Source: a virus
Taxonomy: Duplodnaviria > Heunggongvirae > Uroviricota > Caudoviricetes
Reading direction: 5' to 3' (one strand)
IMG/VR virus record: IMGVR_UViG_3300009537_004349
Length of the DNA: 64,000 bases
Shown here: piece by piece, positions 6,801 to 60,129 of the stretch
Layout of the letters: each line of letters opens with the position of its first letter
Position numbering within the stretch: position 1 is the first letter of the stretch
Made by a program: the position numbers and the translations under genes
The notes under the pieces: model-generated
What the model saw: only the letters and a program-made list of their open reading frames with translations
The model's database searches: none
Told to the model about the DNA's origin: nothing

Positions 6801-7408
6801 TAATTAATACCGCTGCCTCGTTCTGAAATATTCAGATTTCCGCCACCAAGACTTGTTTTTCCAGTAGCCGGGTTCATTTCCATAAAGGTAGACTCACCTT
6901 GTAAAAATAATAGTCTACCCTCATTTCCAGTAGTGGTGTCTATACCCATACTCCAAGTATAAGACTGTCCAGTTTCGCTAGCTGAACTATGTATATGTAC
7001 ACTACCTGGACCAACATGAAGAGCATGCCATCTTTGAGATGGCGTGCCTAAATCATGAACATTATCTGTTCCTGGAATAATATATCCATCAACTCTTAAT
7101 CGATTATTGTCGCGTTCCCAGAATAAGTCATTATCACCAGCTATAGTATTACTTCCTGTGAAGAAAGCCAAATAGCCGTCAGCACCCTCGGTAGCAGTTA
7201 CTGTGCCACTACCACCACCTCCGCCAAGTTGTAGCCATGTAGGAGCGGTGTCAGTTAGAATGTAATAGGTATCGTCATCTAATTGTCGAGCAACCTTACC
7301 AATATCATAGCCATCTACAGACGCACCTGTACGCTCAGATGCATCAGCATACTCGAAATTGTGAATTCGGTGTATATTGTTTAAACCTAAGTCCTTATGA
7401 TAAGGCAT
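851..7408 (-). CDS. Long tail fibre/spike protein with C-terminal peptidase S74 intramolecular chaperone
   Basis: 2185 aa, G/S/T-rich, repeated GNVG(I/L)GT motifs, three GADGY modules; C-terminus SDIRLKQNI...GVIAQEIEKVVPEAV...YEQLVPLLIEAVKEL is the S74 autocleaving chaperone signature. Confidence 0.85.
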   Translation of the reverse strand: MPYHKDLGLNNIHRIHNFEYADASERTGASVDGYDIGKVARQLDDDTYYILTDTAPTWLQLGGGGGSGTVTATEGADGYLAFFTGSNTIAGDNDLFWERDNNRLRVDGYIIPGTDNVHDLGTPSQRWHALHVGPGSVHIHSSASETGQSYTWSMGIDTTTGNEGRLLFLQGESTFMEMNPATGKTSLGGGNLNISERGSGINYTTQVNNPIATVQSDSEIGESGSATKVFGLGSAPQAGNTILLGIYLSSSSRTVSSVTQTGVTWSQHDTQVQSSRRTDMWIGEVGSSPGSTITIELSGGNWNTTSDNITAVEFQGINPTVVDSNFQNKDWAFDPMTGSSVTTFDVGDVIVSFIAFTQTNSSSIIDTATASNGDTTNIEISAEQTIGTTSVEAAFVYTVIENDAGSFTHTVDDNPNQNTIGAHGTMYTMVFAPAGGQDVEFTALKVNSINDDLELQLPPSGGTAGFNILSNTSATLVSLTNDGLFTIGSGSPSAELLTVGDAIAIAEGSQPTSEGTFGKLWVDSNGELNFVDDNSNNSQITLNGFLNNTYPNTLNAVGSIIAQTGDIIADEGNLKLDGLSGAVSLKTQIEIAPGVAQSKVAARSDGSVDTTFSLDSPISAGSFLVLGAGFDLTTSDVVSITQSGVSWSLRSRTENSTNYATEVWIGTVTSASPSQSITVTTTDSITTNDHYSVVEVQGVSSQDSDIGIDSTDWAFDPMTGATVNAAGVGDLVLSYISFQTTASNVVIDTASASTSDETIIESSAETTLGGDTDQEAAFISTVVVNTSASFTHTVDDNPNQNTIGAHGVMTTLVFPAQSSTTLDFNAIQMGSYNAIDGYEAIHFNLPPGDFNSKAKFRNATTGNSVLTVDKTGLIGINTDYPHEALTVSGALSLQELGDITRNHDGYGTLYVKASDSKLYFRDDSGTETDLTSGGGGITATEGADGYVAFFTGSDSIAGDNDLFWDRVNNGLLIGGNGTTAGAKLQSRTTVEGGKAFRISRALSYDWDFEVVGTSDLTIGPNGGTPRLYLEAVNPKVGIAMSSDPVSNLDVAGNVTIGGSFAGTNAGPTSGLLVEGKLIVGGGTSMSGTGVQGAEIRSSSSGHILALSRTGGYNYYLDINSSGDFDIMDNNGTTSRLHIQVSDGNVGLGTQSPQNKLDISGAATIGSTYAGSQAAPTDGLAIEGFTSIGFVDTGKPLNVHFTHNSTIDQVRFRNSGTGDSGMDLDLRTADTAMLWRVYNKGNTTSFLTWDAAGMALFRTPSGTSSNASRLVFGTGSDVPINFITNDISRMTLSSLGHLGIGTELPIEPLTINGPIALQELADVPATQDGYGKLYTDSAGELAYVDDEGNQIQITLSGAVNASGSGVQKTSGFTGADGYVAFFTGNNEIAGDNDLFYNRASGTLEINGANSNAILVYGDGGNSLRIQGPLVDHPLALDTAGTAIIQAPANRSLGIDVLGNGTSDRFFIGVDTTLSGGPVNFEAFTVSGDGNVGIHEDSPAFPLHVNATVTDAAIEGTNSTGLRILGEGSNFTKIIGNINTHAVLGEPAGRILGPGARSLAVEINGNGAADRFAIITDPSNGSSADTVHTSFYNDGRTTFHSSSDTEFAGNVGIGITPTAKLHVDGGGAIPALFVGDGDSGLRISGDGGALIEIMGNQTTHAVTGVQTGRFIGPGNRAMAFELSGNGNTDRFCFITDPDLTGGADTEVFTIQQDGTVGIGRTAPLSALEVQGAINVYNDATAAISLRSFEDPPAARVQFISARGTEASPSPLSTAGDVLGKLRFLGQISTSPGGFQEHAYIQVEANQNGSWATSTNRRSDITFANYHNDGGGLFERMRIRYDGNIGIGSTDPSALLTLNRSSGDPNISLAIADTVKFTIGVDDSDADSFKIGTTAVETGTSLTIDSSGRVGIGASATTPTAPLLVKVDQDGITDFRVSNASTATGGEARILIQNDVASSAIEMFGSNYSGTIGGIDAANVFTTRSGSTATGGMIVGTYMDGTRLRFMTGNLVKATLDGIGNLGIGPNSDNPVATLMVNGAIAIQENNAPGDNHDGYGKLYTGTDSELHFIDDSGNDTQLTTAPSDIRLKQNIEIIGDALNKISAIRGVYYEWNELAHEYSNRVEGQRRLGVIAQEIEKVVPEAVNDNKEYKSLEYEQLVPLLIEAVKELKRENEILKGRLDNIEETKK
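4970..6770 (-). repeat. Duplicated ~220-aa beta-rich domain inside 851..7408
   Basis: Two copies (~6100-6770 and ~4970-5630) share DWAFDPMTG and SFTHTVDDNPNQNTIGAHG exactly. Confidence 0.9.
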
Positions 7409-20234: not shown

Positions 20235-21896
<1,662 letters not shown>

Positions 21897-31593: not shown

Positions 31594-31835
31594 ATTATCG
31601 TTCCCTTTGCTTTATCTATTCCGCACCAGCAGATGCTCTTTCCATCTGTAAGCTGTAACGCTGACGTATCTAAACCAAAATGCTTTCGGTATATTCTACA
31701 TAGCAATGAGTAGTCTGTTTCTATAAGGCGCTCTTCAATTCCATCATCCCTACTTTTAGAAATAGAGAATACTGAACTTTTTCTGATATTAAGACTCTCA
31801 GCTAATTGTTTCAGTTCCAAGTACACGTGGGCCAT
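31590..31835 (-). CDS. Hypothetical protein
   Basis: ORF in tiled run. Confidence 0.5.
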   Translation of the reverse strand: MAHVYLELKQLAESLNIRKSSVFSISKSRDDGIEERLIETDYSLLCRIYRKHFGLDTSALQLTDGKSICWCGIDKAKGTII

Positions 31836-32577
31836 CCTTTGTCACTGCTATTGACAGCTCCCAATGAACCGCCATACTCTTATCTTTCGTCACTACCGTC
31901 CAGCCATCACTTAGGATATCTACATCTGACGTGCCTAGAGTAAACATAGGTTCTAAGGCAAAGACCATTCCTTCTCGCAATCTAATATTCGGCTCTTGGA
32001 TATTAACCCAATTGAAGACATGCGGGTCTTCGTGCATCCTCTTGCCTATTCCGTGCCCACAAAAATTCACCAGATTCCCATACCCATGTTGCTTGGCCAC
32101 AGCATCAATAGCTGCCCCTATGTCGTGCAAGCGATTGCCAACATGCATCGCGTTTATTCCAGCAACTAAACTATCACGAGTGTGTTGTACCAGATTGCTA
32201 ACATGCGAAGACGGAGCATCTCCTACCACAAATGTCTTAGCAGAATCTCCTGCATATCCTTTATGGTATACACCAAAGTCTAGACTCACTATATCCCCGT
32301 TTTGAATTATTTTATCATCTCTGGGTATGCCATGGACAACCTCTTCGTTGACCGAAACACACAACACCTTCGGAAAGCCCCTATAGTTCTTAAAGGCTGA
32401 CTTAGCCCCATGAGATTTCAGCCGTTCCTCTGCTAACAAATCCAAATGAGCTGTCGTCATTCCTGGTTTTAGATGTTCGCCTACATGATTAAGGACATCA
32501 TGCACGATGCTATTGGCTTCGTGCATAAGTTCAATTTCTTTTGTAGACTTGAGATATGTGAGTCCATAGATTGACAT
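31798..32577 (-). CDS. map: Methionine aminopeptidase type I
   Basis: CVSVNEEVVHGIP, DFG, GDS, GHGIG..HEDP, LEPM, HWE: all five metal ligands present. Confidence 0.96.
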   Translation of the reverse strand: MSIYGLTYLKSTKEIELMHEANSIVHDVLNHVGEHLKPGMTTAHLDLLAEERLKSHGAKSAFKNYRGFPKVLCVSVNEEVVHGIPRDDKIIQNGDIVSLDFGVYHKGYAGDSAKTFVVGDAPSSHVSNLVQHTRDSLVAGINAMHVGNRLHDIGAAIDAVAKQHGYGNLVNFCGHGIGKRMHEDPHVFNWVNIQEPNIRLREGMVFALEPMFTLGTSDVDILSDGWTVVTKDKSMAVHWELSIAVTKDGPRVLGTETIS

Positions 32578-33554
32578 CAACGCCCCTTTGATAATGCTTC
32601 GATTCTATCCAAATAATTTTTGTATTCATCGAGCCATTTGTTTACTCTGACGTTCTTATGAATCATTAGCGAGAACAGTATGCTCTTCATATCTTCCATG
32701 GAGATATTATCTGCGCTTACATTTCTTTCCCTCTCAGCTAACGCTATCCTGCCTACCAATGACTCATAGCCCATATGTGTCCAGTATTTGGTATAGTGCA
32801 TCTTGTATTTATACAGATACTCAATAAACTCAAATCTAGTTACCGAGGGCAATTCTTCTAGGTCTTTCTTTGTAATAGAGACAGTAAAAGGCAACTTCTT
32901 ACAAAGGGTAGGGGACTTTGCCAAATCTTTAATGAGCCTCTTCCTTTTTCCTAAGTCGGACAAATCGTAATCTTTGTCATAGCGAAGATACGTAAAGAAC
33001 TTTGACTTTTTCACTATCTTCTTTATTTCGGGGTTGTCTATCCCACCAGGAATCTTTTTTACCAGCTCATTGAAGTTCTTTTTGTCCATAGAGCGATAGA
33101 AGCGCTTAAATAAAAGCACACCTCTAGCATCGTTGCTTGGTATTAACTTACAGCAACTGCGTATCAATCTATTTTTTACGCTGGAGTTAAATAGGTTATA
33201 ATTCGATAGAACCAAATCTACCACAGCAGACTTAGTTCCGTTCAACAGATAGGGTGTGCACTTCTCAATTACATCAACATAAAAGCTATTTAACTTCATC
33301 AGTGTTCCCCAATAGTTAGTTGGCGGACTGTTAAATACCTGGTGAAGTTGCTCCACCAAGGCCACGCTGATAAAATGCTTTAGTTCATTATATTTGAGAG
33401 TTGGGGGTTCTGCGTTCTCGATAATATCCAGAATCGCCTCAGCAGAACCCTTAAAATCGTCGGGGCAAGAACCGAGTTCTTGCATGAACGCCTTCGGGTC
33501 ACTAGATAGTTTCTTTATTCTAGTTATTCGAGACGTTCTATTTGTCATTCCCAA
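32577..33554 (-). CDS. Unannotated helical protein, paralog family member 1
   Basis: LEELPSVTRFEFIEYL...ISMEDMKSILFSLMIHKNVRVNKWLDEY motif shared with four other ORFs. Confidence 0.75.
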   Translation of the reverse strand: MGMTNRTSRITRIKKLSSDPKAFMQELGSCPDDFKGSAEAILDIIENAEPPTLKYNELKHFISVALVEQLHQVFNSPPTNYWGTLMKLNSFYVDVIEKCTPYLLNGTKSAVVDLVLSNYNLFNSSVKNRLIRSCCKLIPSNDARGVLLFKRFYRSMDKKNFNELVKKIPGGIDNPEIKKIVKKSKFFTYLRYDKDYDLSDLGKRKRLIKDLAKSPTLCKKLPFTVSITKKDLEELPSVTRFEFIEYLYKYKMHYTKYWTHMGYESLVGRIALAERERNVSADNISMEDMKSILFSLMIHKNVRVNKWLDEYKNYLDRIEALSKGR

Positions 33555-40653: not shown

Positions 40654-41085
40654 TTAAGGGCTTTTTGGAATTTTGTTATACAAGTCTCCACCCTTTACAA
40701 CTAAAGTATAGTGACCTCCGTATGTCACGGCGCACATTTCTACGCTGGGGTCAATGACTCCTGCCTTACCTACTAAGCCAGACATAATTAGGTTCTTAAC
40801 TGCCCAATCGGGCAACCAGCACGCAGCCTTTATAGCTTTGTTTTGAAACGGAAAAATGCTTTCTGTGAGTACAGTGCCTCCGTATCCATTGTTAGTTCCA
40901 ACCAAGTCAGACAATACGAAAGGACCAGAGAACATATTATCTACTTCAAATGCTACACCACTGGGTTTGTTTTTTTGATACACTGATGCTAAGCGTACCC
41001 CAACCGTAGCACCATCTATAAGCTGTTGGCGGTCACACACAACATAAACTTTGTCAGGTATGACCGCCTTAACAGGAATATACAT
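40654..41085 (-). CDS. Hypothetical protein
   Basis: 1-bp overlap with upstream gene. Confidence 0.65.
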   Translation of the reverse strand: MYIPVKAVIPDKVYVVCDRQQLIDGATVGVRLASVYQKNKPSGVAFEVDNMFSGPFVLSDLVGTNNGYGGTVLTESIFPFQNKAIKAACWLPDWAVKNLIMSGLVGKAGVIDPSVEMCAVTYGGHYTLVVKGGDLYNKIPKSP

Positions 41086-41957
41086 TACGGGGTTTCCTCT
41101 TCGTCCTCTTCAACCTTAGGGGGTTCACTTTCAGTGATGTCCTTATAGGTTTGATACAGCTTTTGAACCAAGTCGTTGTGCTCGATACATCCGGCAAACA
41201 AAACTAGATTAAGCTCATCCTCGGTTGGAGATGGATCAAAGACTTGAATTTGTTTGAACTTGGGAAATCTGTTTAGATAGACTTCCAAAGTCTTTAGTCT
41301 TTCCATAGGCTTCAGCTCACTAAACAAACTAAAGTCTACTATCTCAAATACCCTATCAAAATAGCTGAGCTTGGATAGTGCCTTGAGGGCAATAACCATT
41401 TGATGCTTGGTAATCAACTTGCGATTGCCATAGTCATTAATGCATAGAGCCAGGGCTCGCACCTCTGGTCTATCATCTGCCAGCACTCTCTGAAGGAATG
41501 GGGCAAAATGCTTATTGCTCACCTTATTTAGCACCGACAATGCCTCAGAAGCAACCACTGGATTCTGATTTAGAACATGGTCCATTACCTGATTAAGGCT
41601 GTCCACATCGTTATCATCTGCAAGGTTATATAGAAACTTATGAGTAAGCTTGTCTTTCCCCTCGTCCTTGAGTCGAGCCTTGTTAGCAGCATTAACCCAA
41701 TTGAACAGCAACGGATGCTTCTCTTGTGGAAACTTCTCAAATATTTCTTCAGGGGTGTACTCGCCCAACACACTATTAACATGCTCTCGCAGGTCCTTGA
41801 TGCTGGATGGCTGACTTTGGACACACTCGAAGAACATATCCAGCGTGTCCAGATTGGTGATTCTACGCCTTAGTGCGTTCACTGCCAACTCACCTGGCAG
41901 TCGATAACATACTTCTTCCCAGGGCATGTCATCAAATGCTTGGTCAAAAATACTCAT
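41085..41957 (-). CDS. Unannotated helical protein, paralog family member 2
   Basis: IALKALSKL...[18 protein letters not shown]...[28 protein letters not shown]. Confidence 0.75.
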
Positions 41958-42412
41958 TTCTCTTTCCCTTGTTGTTGCGGTTTAGGATTGTACGGTTTCT
42001 TCTTGAAATTGTTGTTGAACTTTTTGCCCTTGTAGCCACCAGAAGGCTTATTGCCAGTCTTATTATACGGCCTATTGTTAGGCTTAGAGTTAGAGGATGG
42101 CCCTCTGGAATCTCTAGACTGATAATTGTTATTCTGTGGACGAGGCTTTAGCGGAATCTTCTGGGTCTTATCCTTATTCCACTTAAAGTTCTGATTCGTT
42201 CCTGCTCTAGCCTTACGTGCTGCGAGCTTTTTGTCGCGCTTCAGAGCCCTCTTTCGAGCTGCTGCTTGCTTCTTCTTTCTCTTTACACTTGGTTTTTCAT
42301 AGAATTCATGCTTCTTAAGGTCAGCCAGTACGCCCGATTTTTCTACTGCGCGTTTGAACCTCTTTAAAAGAGACTCTATGTTCTCATTAGGTCTAGCTTT
42401 TACAAATGCCAT
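41954..42412 (-). CDS. rpsU: Ribosomal protein bS21 with long basic low-complexity C-terminal extension
   Basis: [45 protein letters not shown] is the bS21 signature; 152 aa versus ~60-70 typical. Confidence 0.93.
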
Positions 42413-42448
42413 AATATCTCCTTGTTAATGTAAGTAAAATCGTGCGCA

Positions 42449-42482
42449 AATACAAAAGGGGTTGGCTTTTACACCAACCCCT
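42449..42482 (-). terminator. Intrinsic terminator
   Basis: AGGGGTTGG-N8-CCAACCCCT then TTTGTATTT. Confidence 0.8.
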
Positions 42483-42487
42483 CTCGT

Positions 42488-42778
42488 TTATTCGGAGTCT
42501 GATTCTGAAACTTCTGCTGTCTCAGTGGGACTAGCAACCGCTGCGGCATCTGCCTCTCGCTGTTGCTGAGCCAATGCCTCACGGCTTTCCTGAGTAGCAG
42601 TCAACAGATTCACAAACTCGCTAAATTGCGAACCAGGAATCACGGTAGATGCGCCACTGCCCTTACCACGTCGGGTACGGAATGTAACATTACCTTCTCC
42701 ATCTACGTCCAGCGTATCTCGCACGATGTCGATTACGCCTTGCTCTTGCTCAGGCTCCTTACTAAAAACACTTGCCAT
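42488..42778 (-). CDS. Hypothetical protein
   Basis: Strong GGAGGTG SD and own terminator. Confidence 0.75.
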   Translation of the reverse strand: MASVFSKEPEQEQGVIDIVRDTLDVDGEGNVTFRTRRGKGSGASTVIPGSQFSEFVNLLTATQESREALAQQQREADAAAVASPTETAEVSESDSE

Positions 42779-42789
42779 TTTTCACCTCC

Positions 42790-43656
42790 TTACTTTTTTA
42801 GTGTGTTGTTGACAAGATTGTCAAACTCTTTGATTAGTTCAACTACTTGGTCGTTGTACTTCAATGAGCACGGAAACAGAAAGGTTTCTACTTCCTCATG
42901 ACTGGGAATATCAGTAAAAGGATTATTGTCTTTCTGTTTGTTATAGCTGTTGAGCATTCCCAACAGTTGACGCATAGCGTCTATTCTTGCTTTTGGACCC
43001 AAGTGTCCAAGCATTTTGAAATCTACTTTTGATTTTACAGATCTTTGTTTTGATAGCTTAGATAATGCCTTAAGCCCCTTCAAAGTATATTTTTCATTTA
43101 CATCATCTCTCGATAATAGGTAAACACTCACAGCTGGAGTAGATTTACCTAGAGCCTTGCAGGCGTCTTCAAGATAATCCTTAGATATGTGTTGAAACAA
43201 TGTTTCTACAGCCTTAAGATTATCTGTGCTTCTCCGACTCTTGTAAATATTGGTAAGTCTTGAAAGTGCTGGTACTACCAGAGACGAGTCACTCGGTATG
43301 GATTCCGCAATCCAGACACACTTATTTGTGTCGTCTTGTAGCCAAGCAACAGTGAGTTTTTCTTTTAGGTCATCATCGAGCCATTGTTTGTATGCCTCGA
43401 ATCTCCACCATTCTATATTATCACTATTGCCCAGATGGCTATCAAGAATAGAGTTTACTCTCTTTCTTGTTTCAGGTAATACCCTGTGCAAATCCCCATA
43501 ACACATGTAGTAGTATGCTTCAGCCAGTGATTCAACATCAACAAACTTCTTTGCTATATGAGGATCTAATGCTGCGCATCTCTCCTGGTCACCGGGATTT
43601 AACTCCGACAGCAAATCAAAGATGTTAGCATCTTCATAGTTTGTTTCACCTGACAT
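42790..43656 (-). CDS. Unannotated helical protein, paralog family member 3
   Basis: KGLKALSKL...MLGHLGPKARIDAMRQLL...PSHEEVETFLFPCSLKYNDQVVELIKEF. Confidence 0.75.
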   Translation of the reverse strand: MSGETNYEDANIFDLLSELNPGDQERCAALDPHIAKKFVDVESLAEAYYYMCYGDLHRVLPETRKRVNSILDSHLGNSDNIEWWRFEAYKQWLDDDLKEKLTVAWLQDDTNKCVWIAESIPSDSSLVVPALSRLTNIYKSRRSTDNLKAVETLFQHISKDYLEDACKALGKSTPAVSVYLLSRDDVNEKYTLKGLKALSKLSKQRSVKSKVDFKMLGHLGPKARIDAMRQLLGMLNSYNKQKDNNPFTDIPSHEEVETFLFPCSLKYNDQVVELIKEFDNLVNNTLKK

Positions 43657-44828
43657 TAGTACTCTCTCTTCTCATTAGGGATTAACACACGTTGGCCCCA
43701 CTTAGGAAGATAGTTCATACCATCTTCTTCTGTGCAGCACCACAAAACTGGATAGCTCGGAGCCTTTTCTGGAAAGCTACCATACGCATCTGTAAGGTAG
43801 ATAAGCAGTTCTGGCTGCATATTATCCTTCTCAACTCTCTCAAACACAGGCCGCATGTCAGTACCACCACCACCGGCCATCTTAATCTGGCTCAAGAAAT
43901 CACCAAACTTGTTAATCTTCACCACTTCTTGAACCCTGCAGTCACAACTTATTGCCGTAACCTCAGAAACTAAGTGGCGAATCTTATTGATTTCACCAGC
44001 AAACTGCTCTAGGCAGTAACGACCAATAGAACCAGAGGTGTCAATGGCCACAATCACCTTGCCGATGATATAGTTACGCAAGTCTGGCAGGTAAATATCC
44101 TGACCTAGATAACGCTTGTTGACACGAGTGTAGGAATAATCGTCCTTAGAGAGAGCTTGTCCAACATACTTGTGGAAAATCCTCTCCCACTTAACCTTAT
44201 TCTTACGCAACTTATCAATCCAGCGCTTCAGACCAGCAGGCACATTGCCCTTGCCCTTTGTGTTTTTGGTCATCTCATAAGCAGTTACAATCTTGTCTTC
44301 CATATCATCCCAGCCGCCTTCATCAGAAGCCTCGATGTGCATATCGAAAGTCTTAAACTTTGATACATCCTTTGGAAGGTCATCATAAATCTGCTCAGCA
44401 TTCATATCAGAATACTTCTGGTCAATAAGCAGTCCATCAGGAAGCTGATAGCCCATCTGCTTGATTTCCCAGTTGATTGCAAAGTCAGCTGCTACGTTCC
44501 AGCGCTTATGCTCCCTATTCAGCCTACGCTTTGGAGTACAGTGCATATAGATGCAGTGACTAATCTCATGCAGGAGAACGCCGAATACCTCTTCGTCATT
44601 CAACGACATCACGAACTCAGGGTTATAGAAAACCCTCGCTCCATCTGTTGCCATAGTGGGAATAACTGATTCAGGAATGAAGTCAGTCATAGAAAGTAGA
44701 ACGCCATAGAAGGGCTGCTGTAGCAAGAGCCTCGCACGACTGGTACCCATTCGTTCTTTAGCGTTATGTAATACTGTTGGGTCAACCTCTTTATCCCCTA
44801 CAGGCAGTCTATCTCGAAAATCACTCAT
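43656..44828 (-). CDS. DUF2201-type metallopeptidase-like domain plus vWA domain protein
   Basis: TMATDG, LLHEISH, WNVAADFAIN; vWA MIDAS DTSGS, GGGGTD, YLTDAYG; likely start MSDFRD at 44828. Confidence 0.9.
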   Translation of the reverse strand: MSDFRDRLPVGDKEVDPTVLHNAKERMGTSRARLLLQQPFYGVLLSMTDFIPESVIPTMATDGARVFYNPEFVMSLNDEEVFGVLLHEISHCIYMHCTPKRRLNREHKRWNVAADFAINWEIKQMGYQLPDGLLIDQKYSDMNAEQIYDDLPKDVSKFKTFDMHIEASDEGGWDDMEDKIVTAYEMTKNTKGKGNVPAGLKRWIDKLRKNKVKWERIFHKYVGQALSKDDYSYTRVNKRYLGQDIYLPDLRNYIIGKVIVAIDTSGSIGRYCLEQFAGEINKIRHLVSEVTAISCDCRVQEVVKINKFGDFLSQIKMAGGGGTDMRPVFERVEKDNMQPELLIYLTDAYGSFPEKAPSYPVLWCCTEEDGMNYLPKWGQRVLIPNEKREY

Positions 44829-44832
44829 TGTT

Positions 44833-45789
44833 TTATCCTCTGTCTTGTTCAAAGATTTGTGGCACACAGTACCGTTTGTCAAAAGTTTTTAGTAAGCGCT
44901 CTACTCTATTATAGTATCTAAGGAAACAACTAAACAAAAGCTCTTTCATTTCTTCTTCAGACTTTATGTCATCAAAGTTAAGAGATGTTTTGTTCTCTCC
45001 CCAATACATTATTGACTCTAATATGTTAAGTCTAGTAATAGATGGAATGTCCTTCCATACTTTCTTACCCAAGGGCACTGTTATTTTTGGCACATTCTTT
45101 TTCCTGGTACCTATATTTCTTAGCGCCCTAACTACATATCTGTGTGGTGTATTTGGATTCTGAAGAACGTGAAAGGTTACTTCCTTATTTTTCTTTTGTT
45201 CGCCCTTGAATATTGGAGTCATAAAAGTATCAATCATTTCTTCTGGCATGGTAGCCAACAGGTGCCCTTGAGCACCCCATGAAACGCATGAACCTTTCAT
45301 AACTCTTTCGGCTATTCCCATAGCCAAATCATTTTTATTGTCGTAAAGCCATTTGTAGTCCAATGATGTATCGTTAACCACACTAGATTCGCCTTGGGCA
45401 TACTTGCTAAGCTCTATATCCCTACTCTTGTCGTCTAACCAATCCCATACAACAAAGTCACTTCGATTTGGAAGATAATACTCTCCCTTGCACGCCTCTA
45501 CCATAGCATCACAGTTATTACGAATGTGCGTATTATACGCAGCATATAATTCTGGATATTGAACTAACTGTTTATCTAGTTCTTTGAATCTGGTAAAGAC
45601 CTGTGCAACTTCCCTATGGGATATTTGATTTATGCGGTTAACAAGAATCTTTTCAATTCTTACATCCGCGTCGAGAAACTCAACTACTTTGTTTACATCT
45701 ATACTCGATAGTTGTTCTTCTGTCAAGGTACAAATGTCTAATCCAAAGAGTTCTCCCCAGCTACTTTTAAGCTCTTTCTTGTATACCAT
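44833..45789 (-). CDS. Unannotated helical protein, paralog family member 4
   Basis: VRALRNI...WKDIPSITRLNILESI...KSEEEMKELLFSCFLRYYNRVERLLKTF. Confidence 0.75.
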   Translation of the reverse strand: MVYKKELKSSWGELFGLDICTLTEEQLSSIDVNKVVEFLDADVRIEKILVNRINQISHREVAQVFTRFKELDKQLVQYPELYAAYNTHIRNNCDAMVEACKGEYYLPNRSDFVVWDWLDDKSRDIELSKYAQGESSVVNDTSLDYKWLYDNKNDLAMGIAERVMKGSCVSWGAQGHLLATMPEEMIDTFMTPIFKGEQKKNKEVTFHVLQNPNTPHRYVVRALRNIGTRKKNVPKITVPLGKKVWKDIPSITRLNILESIMYWGENKTSLNFDDIKSEEEMKELLFSCFLRYYNRVERLLKTFDKRYCVPQIFEQDRG

Positions 45790-45874: not shown

Positions 45875-46969
45875 TTATCGGACAATCTTCATGATTTCCT
45901 TGACCCTGGTCTTGAAGGCTGGGTGCTTTGACATAGCCTCCATGGTCTTCAGAGTCTGTTGCTTCAGGAAGATAACCCTAAGCTCAGGAGAAAGCAGTCC
46001 CAAGAAGTTTGCGATATGATCCTCAGACTTCTTGATACCGTTCTTTCTCTTACGGAGTGCGAAGGCAACCGCCAAAGCAACAGCGTACTTGAACGACTGC
46101 TCCTTGCTCTCCCAAGGCTGTGGCATATGACCACTGAAGATTGCTTCTGGGTCAACGTTACGGTAAACATTAGACCATACCACGAACTCAGAGGCAGGAC
46201 CCTTACCAACCGCTGCGGTTAGCAGCTCCTTCTGGTCCTTTTGCTGCTTGGTTGCCTTGATGAGGTTAGATGCGATAACCCAAGAACGTGGGCTTGGGAA
46301 AGCGTGGTCATCGGTCTGCTTGTACAGCAACTCCTGCTTGAAGTGCAGGAAGCCAATGACGTCATCACAGACATCATTCTCACGAGCCCAGGCAGCCCAG
46401 GACTCAACATCAGGCTCGATGTCCAAGTGAATCATACGATTCGCAAGAGCCGAACCGAGAGGTGCGGAGAAAGCCCCGTCCTCTTCTCGGTTACCAGCGG
46501 CTACGATAGCCCAGTCATCAGGCAGCTCGTAGGTGCCAACCATACGGTCGAGAACCAACTGCAGCGATGCATTCTTTACGGACACAGGCGCTTTCTCAAT
46601 CTCATCGAGGAAGACAACGCCAGGACCTTCTGGGCAACAACCCACTGGAACAACCACAGTTTCGGTAACAGTGTTGCCATCGGCATCCACCTTGGTCACC
46701 TCACGAGTGGTCTCAGTAGCAGCCCGCTCTGGCCAGAAGCCAGGCAGGAACCAATCTGCTCGATTAGTGTCCCTATTGGGCATCGGAACGCCACGCAAAT
46801 CGGTGGGCTCCAACTGAGCCAGACGCAAATCCAGGTTCTTACGACCCAGCTCTGCAGAAATCTGGTGGATTAGAGAACTCTTGCCAATACCGGGAGGTCC
46901 CCAGAGCATGACAGGAGTGTTCATACGAATCGAATTCTTTACAATCTTGTAAGCTTCAGATAGCTTCAT
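45875..46969 (-). CDS. MoxR-like AAA+ ATPase
   Basis: GPPGIGKS Walker A, VFLDE Walker B, AAGNREED, SALANRMIH, FPSPRSW. Confidence 0.93.
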   Translation of the reverse strand: MKLSEAYKIVKNSIRMNTPVMLWGPPGIGKSSLIHQISAELGRKNLDLRLAQLEPTDLRGVPMPNRDTNRADWFLPGFWPERAATETTREVTKVDADGNTVTETVVVPVGCCPEGPGVVFLDEIEKAPVSVKNASLQLVLDRMVGTYELPDDWAIVAAGNREEDGAFSAPLGSALANRMIHLDIEPDVESWAAWARENDVCDDVIGFLHFKQELLYKQTDDHAFPSPRSWVIASNLIKATKQQKDQKELLTAAVGKGPASEFVVWSNVYRNVDPEAIFSGHMPQPWESKEQSFKYAVALAVAFALRKRKNGIKKSEDHIANFLGLLSPELRVIFLKQQTLKTMEAMSKHPAFKTRVKEIMKIVR

Positions 46970-52501: not shown

Positions 52502-53322
52502 TATAGCTTCCTAAATGTGATGTTCTCCAATTTTGATTTGCAGAACATGCAAGTTGCCCAAATTAAAGCCTTTGCATTCCATGTGTGCTTGAAGTCTTCT
52601 TCTGCGTGAATTTTAGTACTGTTTAAGGTAAGACTATACTGACCGCATACAGCGCAATCATAGTCTATTGTAACCGTACTCTCTGTATCCAGCTTACTAA
52701 AATACTTATGAGCCTCACATACTGCCGAAACTCTATCCTTATGTCTCAATGACGAACCGAATAGCAGCGGCTCTATAGCATCGGCGTTTATGTTCTTGAA
52801 AATGTTATACCCGACATGTTTGTTATCTAACAATGCCTCTATTACCTTTAGCCTGGTTACTGTGGGCACTTTAAGTAGCGCCTCATATCGAGGAGTATAG
52901 TTGTTATGATACAAAGATGCAGGGCATGCAGAGTAAAAGGATAAACCTCTCAAGCCAGCCACTTCCTCTTCAATTGAGATTTTTGGAAAGCTTAATATCA
53001 TTCGGTGTAGTCGGCTGTTCTCACAGGACAACAACATGCTCTTTAGCTTATCTAGACCAAAATCAAGACAGAAGCTAAGCATCTTATCTACATATTCATC
53101 TCTACCAAAATCTCTACTACTTCCGTGCTTAATAAAAGCTTTGAACAGTCTTTCTCTTCTTTGATAGATTTCGCCATCCATTAGGCCGGTTATGGCATTT
53201 GTGTATGCCCAGCTATCTCCGTCTGCTGTCTCTACCTCTCTAAGCAGCGCCTCTTGCGAATGGATGTCTAACTTTTTCCAATCACGCAATTTATTACGCA
53301 AATCCCAACCGAACTTAGCCAT
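52501..53322 (-). CDS. Unannotated helical protein, paralog family member 5, with C-terminal CxxC pair
   Basis: AGLRGL...LLKVPTVTRLKVIEALL...NADAIEPLLFGSSLRHKDRVSAVCEAH; then CAVC..CMFC. Confidence 0.75.
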   Translation of the reverse strand: MAKFGWDLRNKLRDWKKLDIHSQEALLREVETADGDSWAYTNAITGLMDGEIYQRRERLFKAFIKHGSSRDFGRDEYVDKMLSFCLDFGLDKLKSMLLSCENSRLHRMILSFPKISIEEEVAGLRGLSFYSACPASLYHNNYTPRYEALLKVPTVTRLKVIEALLDNKHVGYNIFKNINADAIEPLLFGSSLRHKDRVSAVCEAHKYFSKLDTESTVTIDYDCAVCGQYSLTLNSTKIHAEEDFKHTWNAKALIWATCMFCKSKLENITFRKL

Positions 53323-54089
53323 TACTTATATCCTAAATATGTTGTGCATACGAACGTGTGTGGCAGTTTAGATAGAATTTGCATATCCATATCTACATGC
53401 CAAGGTGTACGAACAGCCTTGGTGCCATCGTCCAATTCTATTTCTTTAGTAATCCTGTAACAGGATATACCTCTCTTAAACTTTGTAGGATAATCGTTCC
53501 AGTTTATCCCTGCCTTCTGGAATAGTAGCTCCTGCTGTTGGTCTTGATTTAGACCATGCATAAGTTTTCGTGCTGTGCCCTTACCGACCACCTTGCCTAC
53601 TTCATAGTAACAAGCAGCAGATATACTGTTTTTGGTGGCATCGTTTTGCCGCCATATCAAACAATTAATTGCTTCGGATACGGCGGGTACAGCAAATACT
53701 CTGGCATCAAAGTAAGCCAGACGACCAGACATCTTGGAATTAAAGTGCGCAGTAACCATTGAAGACACTACGCTGGCCATTTTCTGTGTGCGATTTCCGA
53801 ACCACGGCTCTGACTCATTCGACTGGTCATTCCTTAATATGAAGGTCATCTCATCGGATTGTGTGTATCCGAACACACAACCCTCAATATTAGCTGCTGC
53901 CTCTTGCATAGTCCAAGCCATGGCATTAGATAGATTCTCATCAAATGGTTTTTGGAGCTTCATGCCCTTGGTCCACTTAGAGAAACCTTTGCCATCGCAA
54001 CGAACTATAACTGGAACTCTGCGCATGATAGCTGTATCATATACACTCTCATATGCTTTCATACGGTCGCCGAGTGTTGTCTTATCCAT
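53322..54089 (-). CDS. tRNA(His) guanylyltransferase Thg1-like (3'-5' polymerase)
   Basis: VRCDGKGFSK, YTQSDEMT, FDARVF, WRQNDATKNSI. Confidence 0.93.
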   Translation of the reverse strand: MDKTTLGDRMKAYESVYDTAIMRRVPVIVRCDGKGFSKWTKGMKLQKPFDENLSNAMAWTMQEAAANIEGCVFGYTQSDEMTFILRNDQSNESEPWFGNRTQKMASVVSSMVTAHFNSKMSGRLAYFDARVFAVPAVSEAINCLIWRQNDATKNSISAACYYEVGKVVGKGTARKLMHGLNQDQQQELLFQKAGINWNDYPTKFKRGISCYRITKEIELDDGTKAVRTPWHVDMDMQILSKLPHTFVCTTYLGYK

Positions 54090-59910: not shown

Positions 59911-60129
59911 TCACTTAAGTCTGTATGTTATACGACCTTTAGTAAGGTCATATGGAGACATGTCTAGTTTAACTCTATCACCCTGAAGAATACTAATGTT
60001 GTTCTTCCTAATTTTACCAGACGGATGGCAGATTATCTCATGTCCATTGTCCAGCTTTACCCTAAACTTTGCATCCTTAAGGGCCTCTAGTACTTCGCCT
60101 TCTGTCTCAATTACGTCTGCTTTACTCAT
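59911..60129 (-). CDS. infA: Translation initiation factor IF-1
   Basis: [60 protein letters not shown]. Confidence 0.97.

Follow-up and report, generated by a model that had tools for sequence, protein, structure and literature searches.

The stretch analysed here (hereafter 'the window') comprises 64,000 nucleotides of viral DNA (IMG/VR record IMGVR_UViG_3300009537_004349; Caudoviricetes), and it carries a gene for the ribosomal protein bS21. An earlier note on this DNA had described the product as a phage-encoded bS21 over twice as long as usual, and this was borne out: with 152 amino acids (aa), the protein exceeds the Pfam and NCBIfam cut-offs for bS21 and has 82 extra residues. From sequence comparisons, we conclude that the gene is a genuine bS21 of an uncultivated giant phage, and that it belongs to a distinct 'extended' subfamily. 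The C-terminal hairpin, the length of the tail and the gene cassette reported below appear to be new; phage bS21, and basic or aromatic extensions on the S21 of huge phages, were already known.

A bS21 core followed by a conserved motif and a variable tail

Three family models recognised the N-terminal part of the protein. Pfam PF01165 (Ribosomal_S21) matched residues 4 to 56 (E = 2e-20, with a score of 72.6 bits and thus above the cut-off of 27), the NCBIfam equivalog model TIGR00030 (S21p) gave 69.6 bits against a cut-off of 28.95, and the phage family phrog_21469 covered residues 1 to 69. With phmmer, residues 2 to 68 could be aligned without gaps on residues 2 to 68 of the 71-aa E. coli bS21, the N-terminus starting at the canonical position. 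The gene thus encodes a complete bS21 of gamma-proteobacterial size, followed by the additional residues. A model computed with AlphaFold2 from the family alignment placed the core helices at residues 12-26, 28-36 and 41-69 with predicted local distance difference test (pLDDT) values of 78 to 98, and the top Foldseek rows were all bS21 chains (probability 1.00, E from 0.004 to 0.03). In an alignment of 60 family sequences, E10, R18, F19, K40, P41, K46 and K54 were invariant, and the proportion of non-synonymous differences (pN) in the core was only 0.05 to 0.06 relative to the nearest relatives, for a saturated proportion of synonymous differences (pS). Residues 1 to 70 have a net charge of +18, and the whole protein one of +36, with an isoelectric point (pI) of 10.9. 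The chain does not stop with the R/K-L-Y ending: residues 69 to 71 read R-A-G, and 81 residues follow.

According to the earlier note, the core was followed by a basic low-complexity tail with no internal stop. The open reading frame (ORF), the core and the tail are indeed present, but residues 71 to 90 are conserved and non-repetitive, and only residues 91 to 152 are of low complexity. The note had missed the hairpin formed by residues 75 to 88, the fact that the extension is a clade-wide trait, the fixed cassette, and the published extensions of huge-phage S21. The consensus of the conserved motif is N-F/W-K/R-W/F-N-x-D-x-T-x-K-I-P. Among the 60 aligned sequences N75 and N79 were invariant, and D81, T83, K85 and I86 were conserved in at least 90%, which is on a par with the classical core positions E10, R18, F19, K40 and P41. 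In the AlphaFold2 model, strands 76-78 and 85-87 pair as a hairpin (pLDDT around 80 to 88) that carries the aromatic pair F76/W78. The motif had a pN of 0 to 0.06 relative to the nearest relatives, synonymous sites being saturated. The extension alone had no match among PDB sequences, Pfam or NCBIfam, nor by tblastn among deposited phage genomes; in the ESM Atlas it retrieved only disordered look-alikes, with template modelling (TM) scores below 0.4, and none of the solved bS21 chains aligned past about 68 columns. The subfamily was defined by the presence of [FW]-x-[WFY]-[NS]-x-[DN]-x-[TS]-x-[KR]-[ILV] immediately past helix three, and then of a tail rich in K, N, P, R and Tyr; the window protein has both.

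The distal part, residues 91 to 152, is of a different nature. Its 62 residues have pLDDT values of 50 to 69 in the AlphaFold2 model, which we read as disorder, a net charge of +14 and a pI of 10.6. Counted from residue 89, K, N, P and R make up 59% of the sequence, the net charge is +15, and there are 6 aromatic residues and no aliphatic ones. Tails across the family have a comparable composition (K 17%, N 16%, P 12%, R 11%, with a net charge of about +0.27 per residue), and aliphatic residues represent 3.4% of them, compared to 32.5% in the window proteome. This composition is kept across the family, whereas the tail sequence and its length, from 3 to 104 residues past the motif, are not. 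Aromatic residues were present in 87 of 93 tails at a median spacing of 7, usually with N or P before and K or N after. Four-residue words centred on Tyr (KKPY, NYKG, RPYQ, PYNN) were repeated in 28 of 83 tails, which is more than in shuffled tails (mean 10.9, maximum 20), and separate lineages amplified different Tyr-centred units. At the codon level, the pN of the tail was 0.14 relative to the closest relative, with a saturated pS; values of 0.37 to 0.46 were obtained with more distant relatives, for which the alignment of low-complexity sequence is unreliable.

The wide range of lengths, the unconserved sequence and the short repeat units could suggest that replication slippage expanded the distal part into low-complexity sequence that is tolerated but devoid of function of its own, and that the core alone, perhaps with the hairpin, matters. 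We give little credence to this explanation. The frame was open in every member inspected, acidic and aliphatic residues are excluded from the tails and aromatic residues are nearly always retained. The low pN with saturated pS for the closest relative, and the repeated amplification of Tyr-centred units in separate lineages, also argue against it, and no tandem repeat was found at the DNA level in the window's own tail.

The region coding for the tail is overlapped by an antisense ORF of 92 aa (41873-42151, plus strand). Rather than a gene, it is most simply seen as a consequence of AAR/AAY-rich codons, whose complement is poor in stops.

About 70 relatives, 100 to 186 aa long and with 50 to 87% identity, were recovered from 5.8 billion proteins. 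Further relatives came from 1.8 billion representatives, searched exhaustively without a profile, and 257 bS21-type proteins were retrieved overall. The strict motif N-[FWY]-[KR]-[FWY]-N was found in 68 to 70 of these, and a relaxed form in 93. The motif-bearing proteins are 87 to 188 aa long (median 126), their N-terminal overhang has a median of 0, and about 90 metagenomic relatives keep the extension. From base composition, the chance of a stop-free run of 82 codons is about 0.0035. Synonymous differences from the nearest relatives are saturated (pS 0.7 to 1.0), and all nucleotide insertions and deletions relative to close relatives are multiples of three (27, 6 and 6 in one case; 6, 12 and 3 in another). 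Because some 90 independent relatives from many samples share the extension, with in-frame insertions and deletions, a conserved motif and little non-synonymous change, we conclude from these comparisons that a sequencing or assembly artefact is excluded, and that the tail genuinely exists, is evidently translated and evolves under selection. The earlier note had named sequencing error as an objection to its own claim; the probability that the long ORF results from such an error, from misassembly or from a lost stop codon is negligible.

The same note had proposed a survey of viral and cellular bS21 lengths, and such a survey was made. Length was expressed as the number of residues after the conserved KPS motif. 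Loci from cellular genomes had a median of 16 and a maximum of 27 (n = 79, a spurious regular-expression match, L016, being set aside). Viral loci from IMG/VR had a median of 28 and a maximum of 33 (n = 78), except for one motif-bearing contig, L094, at 66; viral bS21s surveyed outside the extended family thus have at most 33 residues after KPS. The motif family itself had a median of 84.5 and a range of 45 to 146 (n = 92), and the window protein has 110. It therefore falls outside the size limits set for an ordinary bS21 (about 55 to 75 residues, with fewer than 40 after KPS). In the analysis of more than 2,000 cellular bS21s by Jha et al. 2020, drawn from nine groups, C-terminal domains were handled as short peptides of fewer than 40 residues.

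Phage bS21 relatives numbered at least 259 in IMG/VR, and of these L094 alone aligned into the motif. The possibility that the tail is common in the host lineage, also raised by the earlier note, found no support: the motif-bearing gene, and any cellular lineage with the extension, was absent from the best 80 loci of a scan of cellular genomes covering 185,579 species. The sole named member of the family, MFA5024261.1 (L008/L009), was deposited as a protein of a 'Patescibacteria group bacterium' metagenome-assembled genome. As its 85-kb contig shows the same phage synteny and dozens of ORFs of 50 to 70 aa, this contig is probably a mis-binned phage. The extended form was found only in contigs resembling giant phages.

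A conserved cassette in a giant-phage genome

The extended bS21 gene lies between a small acidic ORF and an ORF of about 290 aa (Table 1). This order was found at 11 of 11 loci, that is, the window (41085-43656, minus strand) and ten others; the set includes L006, L008, L090 to L094, L174 and L175. The cassette persists when identity between the 290-aa neighbour and its counterpart in the window falls to 38%. Alignments showed that both neighbours are true homologues across loci; those of the small ORF (A2 and A5), whose length varies from 72 to 96 aa, contain 14 invariant columns. The small ORF had no match in Pfam, PHROG or NCBIfam, and library searches gave neither neighbour a family assignment. 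It is preceded by the strongest Shine-Dalgarno (SD) sequence of the window, TAAGGAGG. At the junction between the bS21 stop and the next start, an ATGA overlap was found in 5 of 9 cases and TAATG in 1, the other 3 having spacers of 3 to 14 nucleotides (nt). Along the cassette, the net charge goes from -10 to +36 and then to -16, the C-terminal tail of each neighbour being acidic.

The 290-aa family comprises 46 clusters, all metagenomic and none named, of which at least 22 match an extended-bS21 cluster in the exact size of the longest contig. A tblastn search with the window ORF against deposited phages gave no match. AlphaFold predicted an all-alpha solenoid (pLDDT 91), which matched HEAT/ARM proteins in a generic way only (Foldseek E of at least 0.011, VIA Z of at most 7.6; TM in the Atlas up to 0.63 by query, 0.24 by target row). 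These matches single out no specific fold family. The 288-aa ORF two genes upstream, on the other flank of the bS21 region, is a paralog (BLASTP E = 5e-9, 28% identity over the C-terminal 121 aa) that was found in the closer loci and is missing from L092 and L093.

Table 1. Features of the window related to the extended bS21 gene and to translation
Feature	Coordinates	Strand	Remarks
Extended bS21 gene	41954-42412	-	152 aa plus TGA stop, no internal stop; ORF list and translation, PF01165, TIGR00030, phrog_21469
bS21 core, residues 1-70	42203-42412	-	Three helices; AlphaFold, E. coli colinearity, Foldseek, pN
Conserved extension motif, residues 75-88	42149-42190	-	Predicted beta-hairpin; family conservation, AlphaFold, pN
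Distal disordered polycationic tail, residues 91-152	41957-42142	-	pLDDT, charge, composition, in-frame insertions and deletions
SD sequence AAGGAG	42418-42423	-	5 nt ahead of the bS21 ATG; read from sequence
Small acidic ORF	42488-42778	-	96 aa, net charge -10, acidic C-terminus; upstream of extended bS21, homologues in 11/11 loci
Acidic HEAT-like alpha-solenoid ORF	41085-41957	-	290 aa, net charge -16; start overlaps bS21 stop (ATGA)
Solenoid paralog	42790-43656	-	288 aa; BLASTP against the 290-aa ORF
G+C-rich hairpin	42457-42482		9-bp stem, between small ORF and bS21; terminator-like scan, T-run after it on the coding strand
IF-1	59911-60129	-
Methionine aminopeptidase	31798-32580	-
Thg1-like tRNA-His guanylyltransferase	53322-54089	-
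GroEL	20235-21860	-

The constancy of this trio raises the possibility that the hairpin, the tail or both mainly serve to dock the small acidic protein and the HEAT-like 290-aa protein, a function compatible with the ribosome anchoring considered below. The neighbours might chaperone the +36 protein before assembly, in an importin-like manner, or might be recruited to the ribosome as a remodelling module. The arguments for docking are the presence of all three genes at every locus, including those where the 290-aa protein has diverged to 38% identity; the overlap of stop and start codons (ATGA or TAATG) at 6 of 9 junctions; the pairing of clusters by identical longest-contig size; the alternation of charges, with acidic C-termini on both neighbours; and the confident prediction of an alpha-solenoid, as folds of this class are frequent binders of peptides in extended form. 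However, synteny alone is weak evidence of binding, and the fold matches are generic, with Z values below the level that is meaningful for helical repeats. Moreover, solenoid paralogs elsewhere in the window adjoin unrelated genes, so that adjacency may mean a general adaptor or mere gene order; such a pattern would suit a set of adaptors that have their C-terminal domain in common. A prediction of the three-chain complex (solenoid, small ORF and extended bS21, with alignments A4, A5 and A1) gave a score of 0.00, which speaks neither for nor against binding. We retain docking as the main, if tentative, rival explanation, held with well under even confidence.

Possible functions of the DNA hairpin that separates the small ORF from bS21 are intrinsic termination, attenuation, and RNA stabilisation or processing inside the cassette.

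The contig carrying the extended bS21 is 291,701 bp long; the G+C content here is 40 to 44%. In the window, 81 genes were predicted, all on one strand, at a coding density of 93%. They encode a tail-fibre-like protein of 1515 aa, GroEL, a Dda-like helicase, an ATP-dependent ligase and an RNase T-like exonuclease, and three tRNAs are also present. IF-1, methionine aminopeptidase and the Thg1-like enzyme are encoded as well; together with GroEL, they show a broad investment of the phage in translation and in protein maturation. The extended bS21 gene is co-directional among MoxR/VWA, patatin and helicase genes. A MoxR-type AAA+ ATPase (43656-44882, minus strand) and a DUF2201 protein combining metallopeptidase-like and VWA parts (45875-46969, minus strand) stand upstream of the cassette in all longer loci; the PHROG label 'HNH endonuclease' for the DUF2201 family is unsupported by its Pfam domains. 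The window MoxR protein is at most 32% identical to those of cultured phages, and megablast of an 8-kb segment gave no match among deposited phages.

As for the host, a related published phage gives a weak pointer in the form of a 'Proteobacteria 3.7% of genes' profile. An SD match of at least 5 nt precedes 24 of the 81 genes (about 30%), and one of at least 6 nt precedes 10. Since position 54 of the bS21 family is an invariant Lys and not a Tyr, and since this proportion of genes has an SD of 5 nt or more, the host probably uses SD pairing. For the same two reasons, an autoregulation of the kind known for rpsU in Bacteroidetes, based on a strong SD in an SD-poor genome, is not supported. A string (A/T)ATTTAGGA(G) was also observed 5 to 8 nt ahead of several starts (genes at 7408, 52501, 53322 and 56322, minus strand). 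It adds a conserved AT-rich part to the SD, and may be a phage-specific translation signal or a promoter-proximal one.

Possible roles of the extension on the ribosome

In E. coli, the last 13 residues of bS21 form a helix beside the SD helix, and the terminal RLY (residues 69 to 71) packs into h37 at the base of the 30S head, where the Tyr stacks on A1167 (Watson et al. 2020, eLife, PMC7550191). The same authors found RLY-type motifs to be restricted to gamma- and beta-proteobacteria and some phage S21s, and suggested that bS21 may modulate head dynamics or contact mRNA 5' of the SD. Given the colinearity up to residue 68 and the R-A-G at residues 69 to 71, the hairpin of the extended proteins would emerge at the head-platform junction. 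We therefore favour, with about even confidence, a reading in which the hairpin would act as an extra anchor on the 30S head, and the tail as an RNA-binding tether beside the SD duplex.

The steps may be as follows. The core would take the bS21 site on the platform of the host 30S subunit, as was shown for another phage bS21, that of Pelagibacter phage HTVC008M, which in E. coli was incorporated into 70S ribosomes (Mizuno et al. 2019, Nat Commun, PMC6375957). This is the only phage bS21 with experimental ribosome entry, and the paper mentions no extension. The hairpin, with its Asn pair and its aromatic pair, would form a larger second anchor at or near the base of the head, as an enlarged counterpart of the RLY contact. 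The polycationic tail, with its many Tyr residues, would occupy the platform cavity and the mRNA exit region and behave as a multivalent binder of RNA without sequence specificity. Tighter or faster binding to the 30S subunit, compared to the late-binding and exchangeable host bS21, might then allow the phage copy to take over ribosomes, and the handling of mRNA 5' leaders and the movement of the head during initiation might be altered. Entry into the ribosome, and the placement of hairpin and tail, are what we infer from sequence, structural models and analogy with known systems.

Those systems resemble the extended bS21 in part. The hairpin occupies the same chain position as the RLY/KLY element of E. 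coli, and is likewise a short conserved element with an aromatic residue; unlike this tripeptide, it has 14 residues, and its contact with the head is inferred. In land plants, the C-terminal extension of chloroplast bS21c leaves the platform cavity, crosses the mRNA channel over about 60 Å and touches uS7c (bioRxiv 10.64898/2026.07.03.736309). It is also long and largely disordered, and it tethers platform and head. However, the two extensions share no sequence similarity, their conserved elements are at opposite places (at the start of the extension here, at the far end in bS21c), and one belongs to a phage and the other to an organelle.

Among phages, S21 proteins with basic and aromatic N-terminal extensions were reported in huge genomes by Al-Shayeb et al. 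2020 (Nature, PMC7162821), so that the general idea of an extended huge-phage S21 is already published. As in that report, the bS21 described here comes from a phage genome of more than 200 kb and bears a basic and aromatic appendage (F76 and W78, then a tail of +15 with 6 aromatics). In contrast, this appendage is C-terminal, is much longer (45 to 146 residues after KPS in the family) and starts with a conserved hairpin motif unmentioned there. A member of the family, PPR-W_PHAGE_36_0 (108 aa; 223,498 bp, prairie pothole wetland), is present in the data of that study, annotated simply as S21. Giant freshwater phages of 293 to 331 kb with bS21 and Bacteroidetes hosts were described by Chen et al. 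2022 (ISME Commun, PMC9723584), who noted that the C-terminal regions of phage bS21 diverge from bacterial ones and are conserved within phage clades. Those phages have a G+C content of 31 to 34%, carry bS21 on the reverse strand in a block of structural genes and have an aromatic residue at the Tyr54 position. The window differs from them by its higher G+C content, by the position of the gene and by the invariant Lys54. The bS21 of Bacteroidetes that sequesters the anti-SD (Jha et al. 2020) combines a C-terminal domain of weakly basic character with an aromatic residue at position 54, unlike the extended proteins, where K54 is invariant in the 60 sequences and residues 1 to 70 of the window protein reach +18. 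Neither the C-terminal hairpin motif, nor tails this long, nor the cassette turned up in full-text literature searches.

Several observations weigh against the combination of head anchor and RNA tether. The invariable acidic neighbours, at 11 of 11 loci, would suit a role of the extension in binding protein partners equally well. The absence of the extended form from cells, seen among the best 80 loci of the cellular scan, falls short of proof. In a tree based on the core only (401 rows, 58 columns), the extended forms do cluster, with 12 changes compared to 82 after shuffling, but the tree is poorly resolved, so that a single origin of the extended form is not shown.

A role away from the ribosome has also to be considered. 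The net charge of +36, the pI of 10.9 and a tail composition like that of multivalent RNA-binding disordered regions would fit a free nucleic-acid binder or chaperone coating RNA or DNA, be it histone-like, an RNA chaperone or a packaged internal protein. This seems quite unlikely: the canonical S21 signature positions are invariant, the equivalog cut-off is passed and purifying selection is strong, a pattern to be expected of a protein that continues to use its rRNA-binding site. The broad investment of the genome in translation points in the same direction.

Returning to the anchor and tether, the earlier note had suggested that the tail contacts mRNA leaders. Because the tail starts where bS21 adjoins the SD/anti-SD duplex, it may plausibly contact rRNA or mRNA leaders. 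Its other proposals, namely the unwinding of stems masking ribosome-binding sites, the selective translation of phage mRNAs and the formation of condensates, were not supported here. A more ambitious possibility, drawn by analogy, is that the hairpin and tail bridge the platform and head of the 30S subunit across the mRNA exit path and, together with the two acidic partners, form a phage module that would remodel initiation and favour phage mRNAs. We regard this as rather improbable.

Phage bS21 is the commonest viral ribosomal protein. The extended subfamily gives a handle on its benefit to the phage that ordinary phage bS21s lack, in the form of a structured motif, a long tail and two linked partner genes. 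The motif is also a simple sequence marker for such phages in metagenomes, and would help to flag mis-binned contigs. As their appendage is added just where bS21 borders on the SD duplex and on the 30S head, these proteins allow one to ask if phages can make a better version of a ribosomal protein, so as to out-compete the host copy or re-tune initiation.

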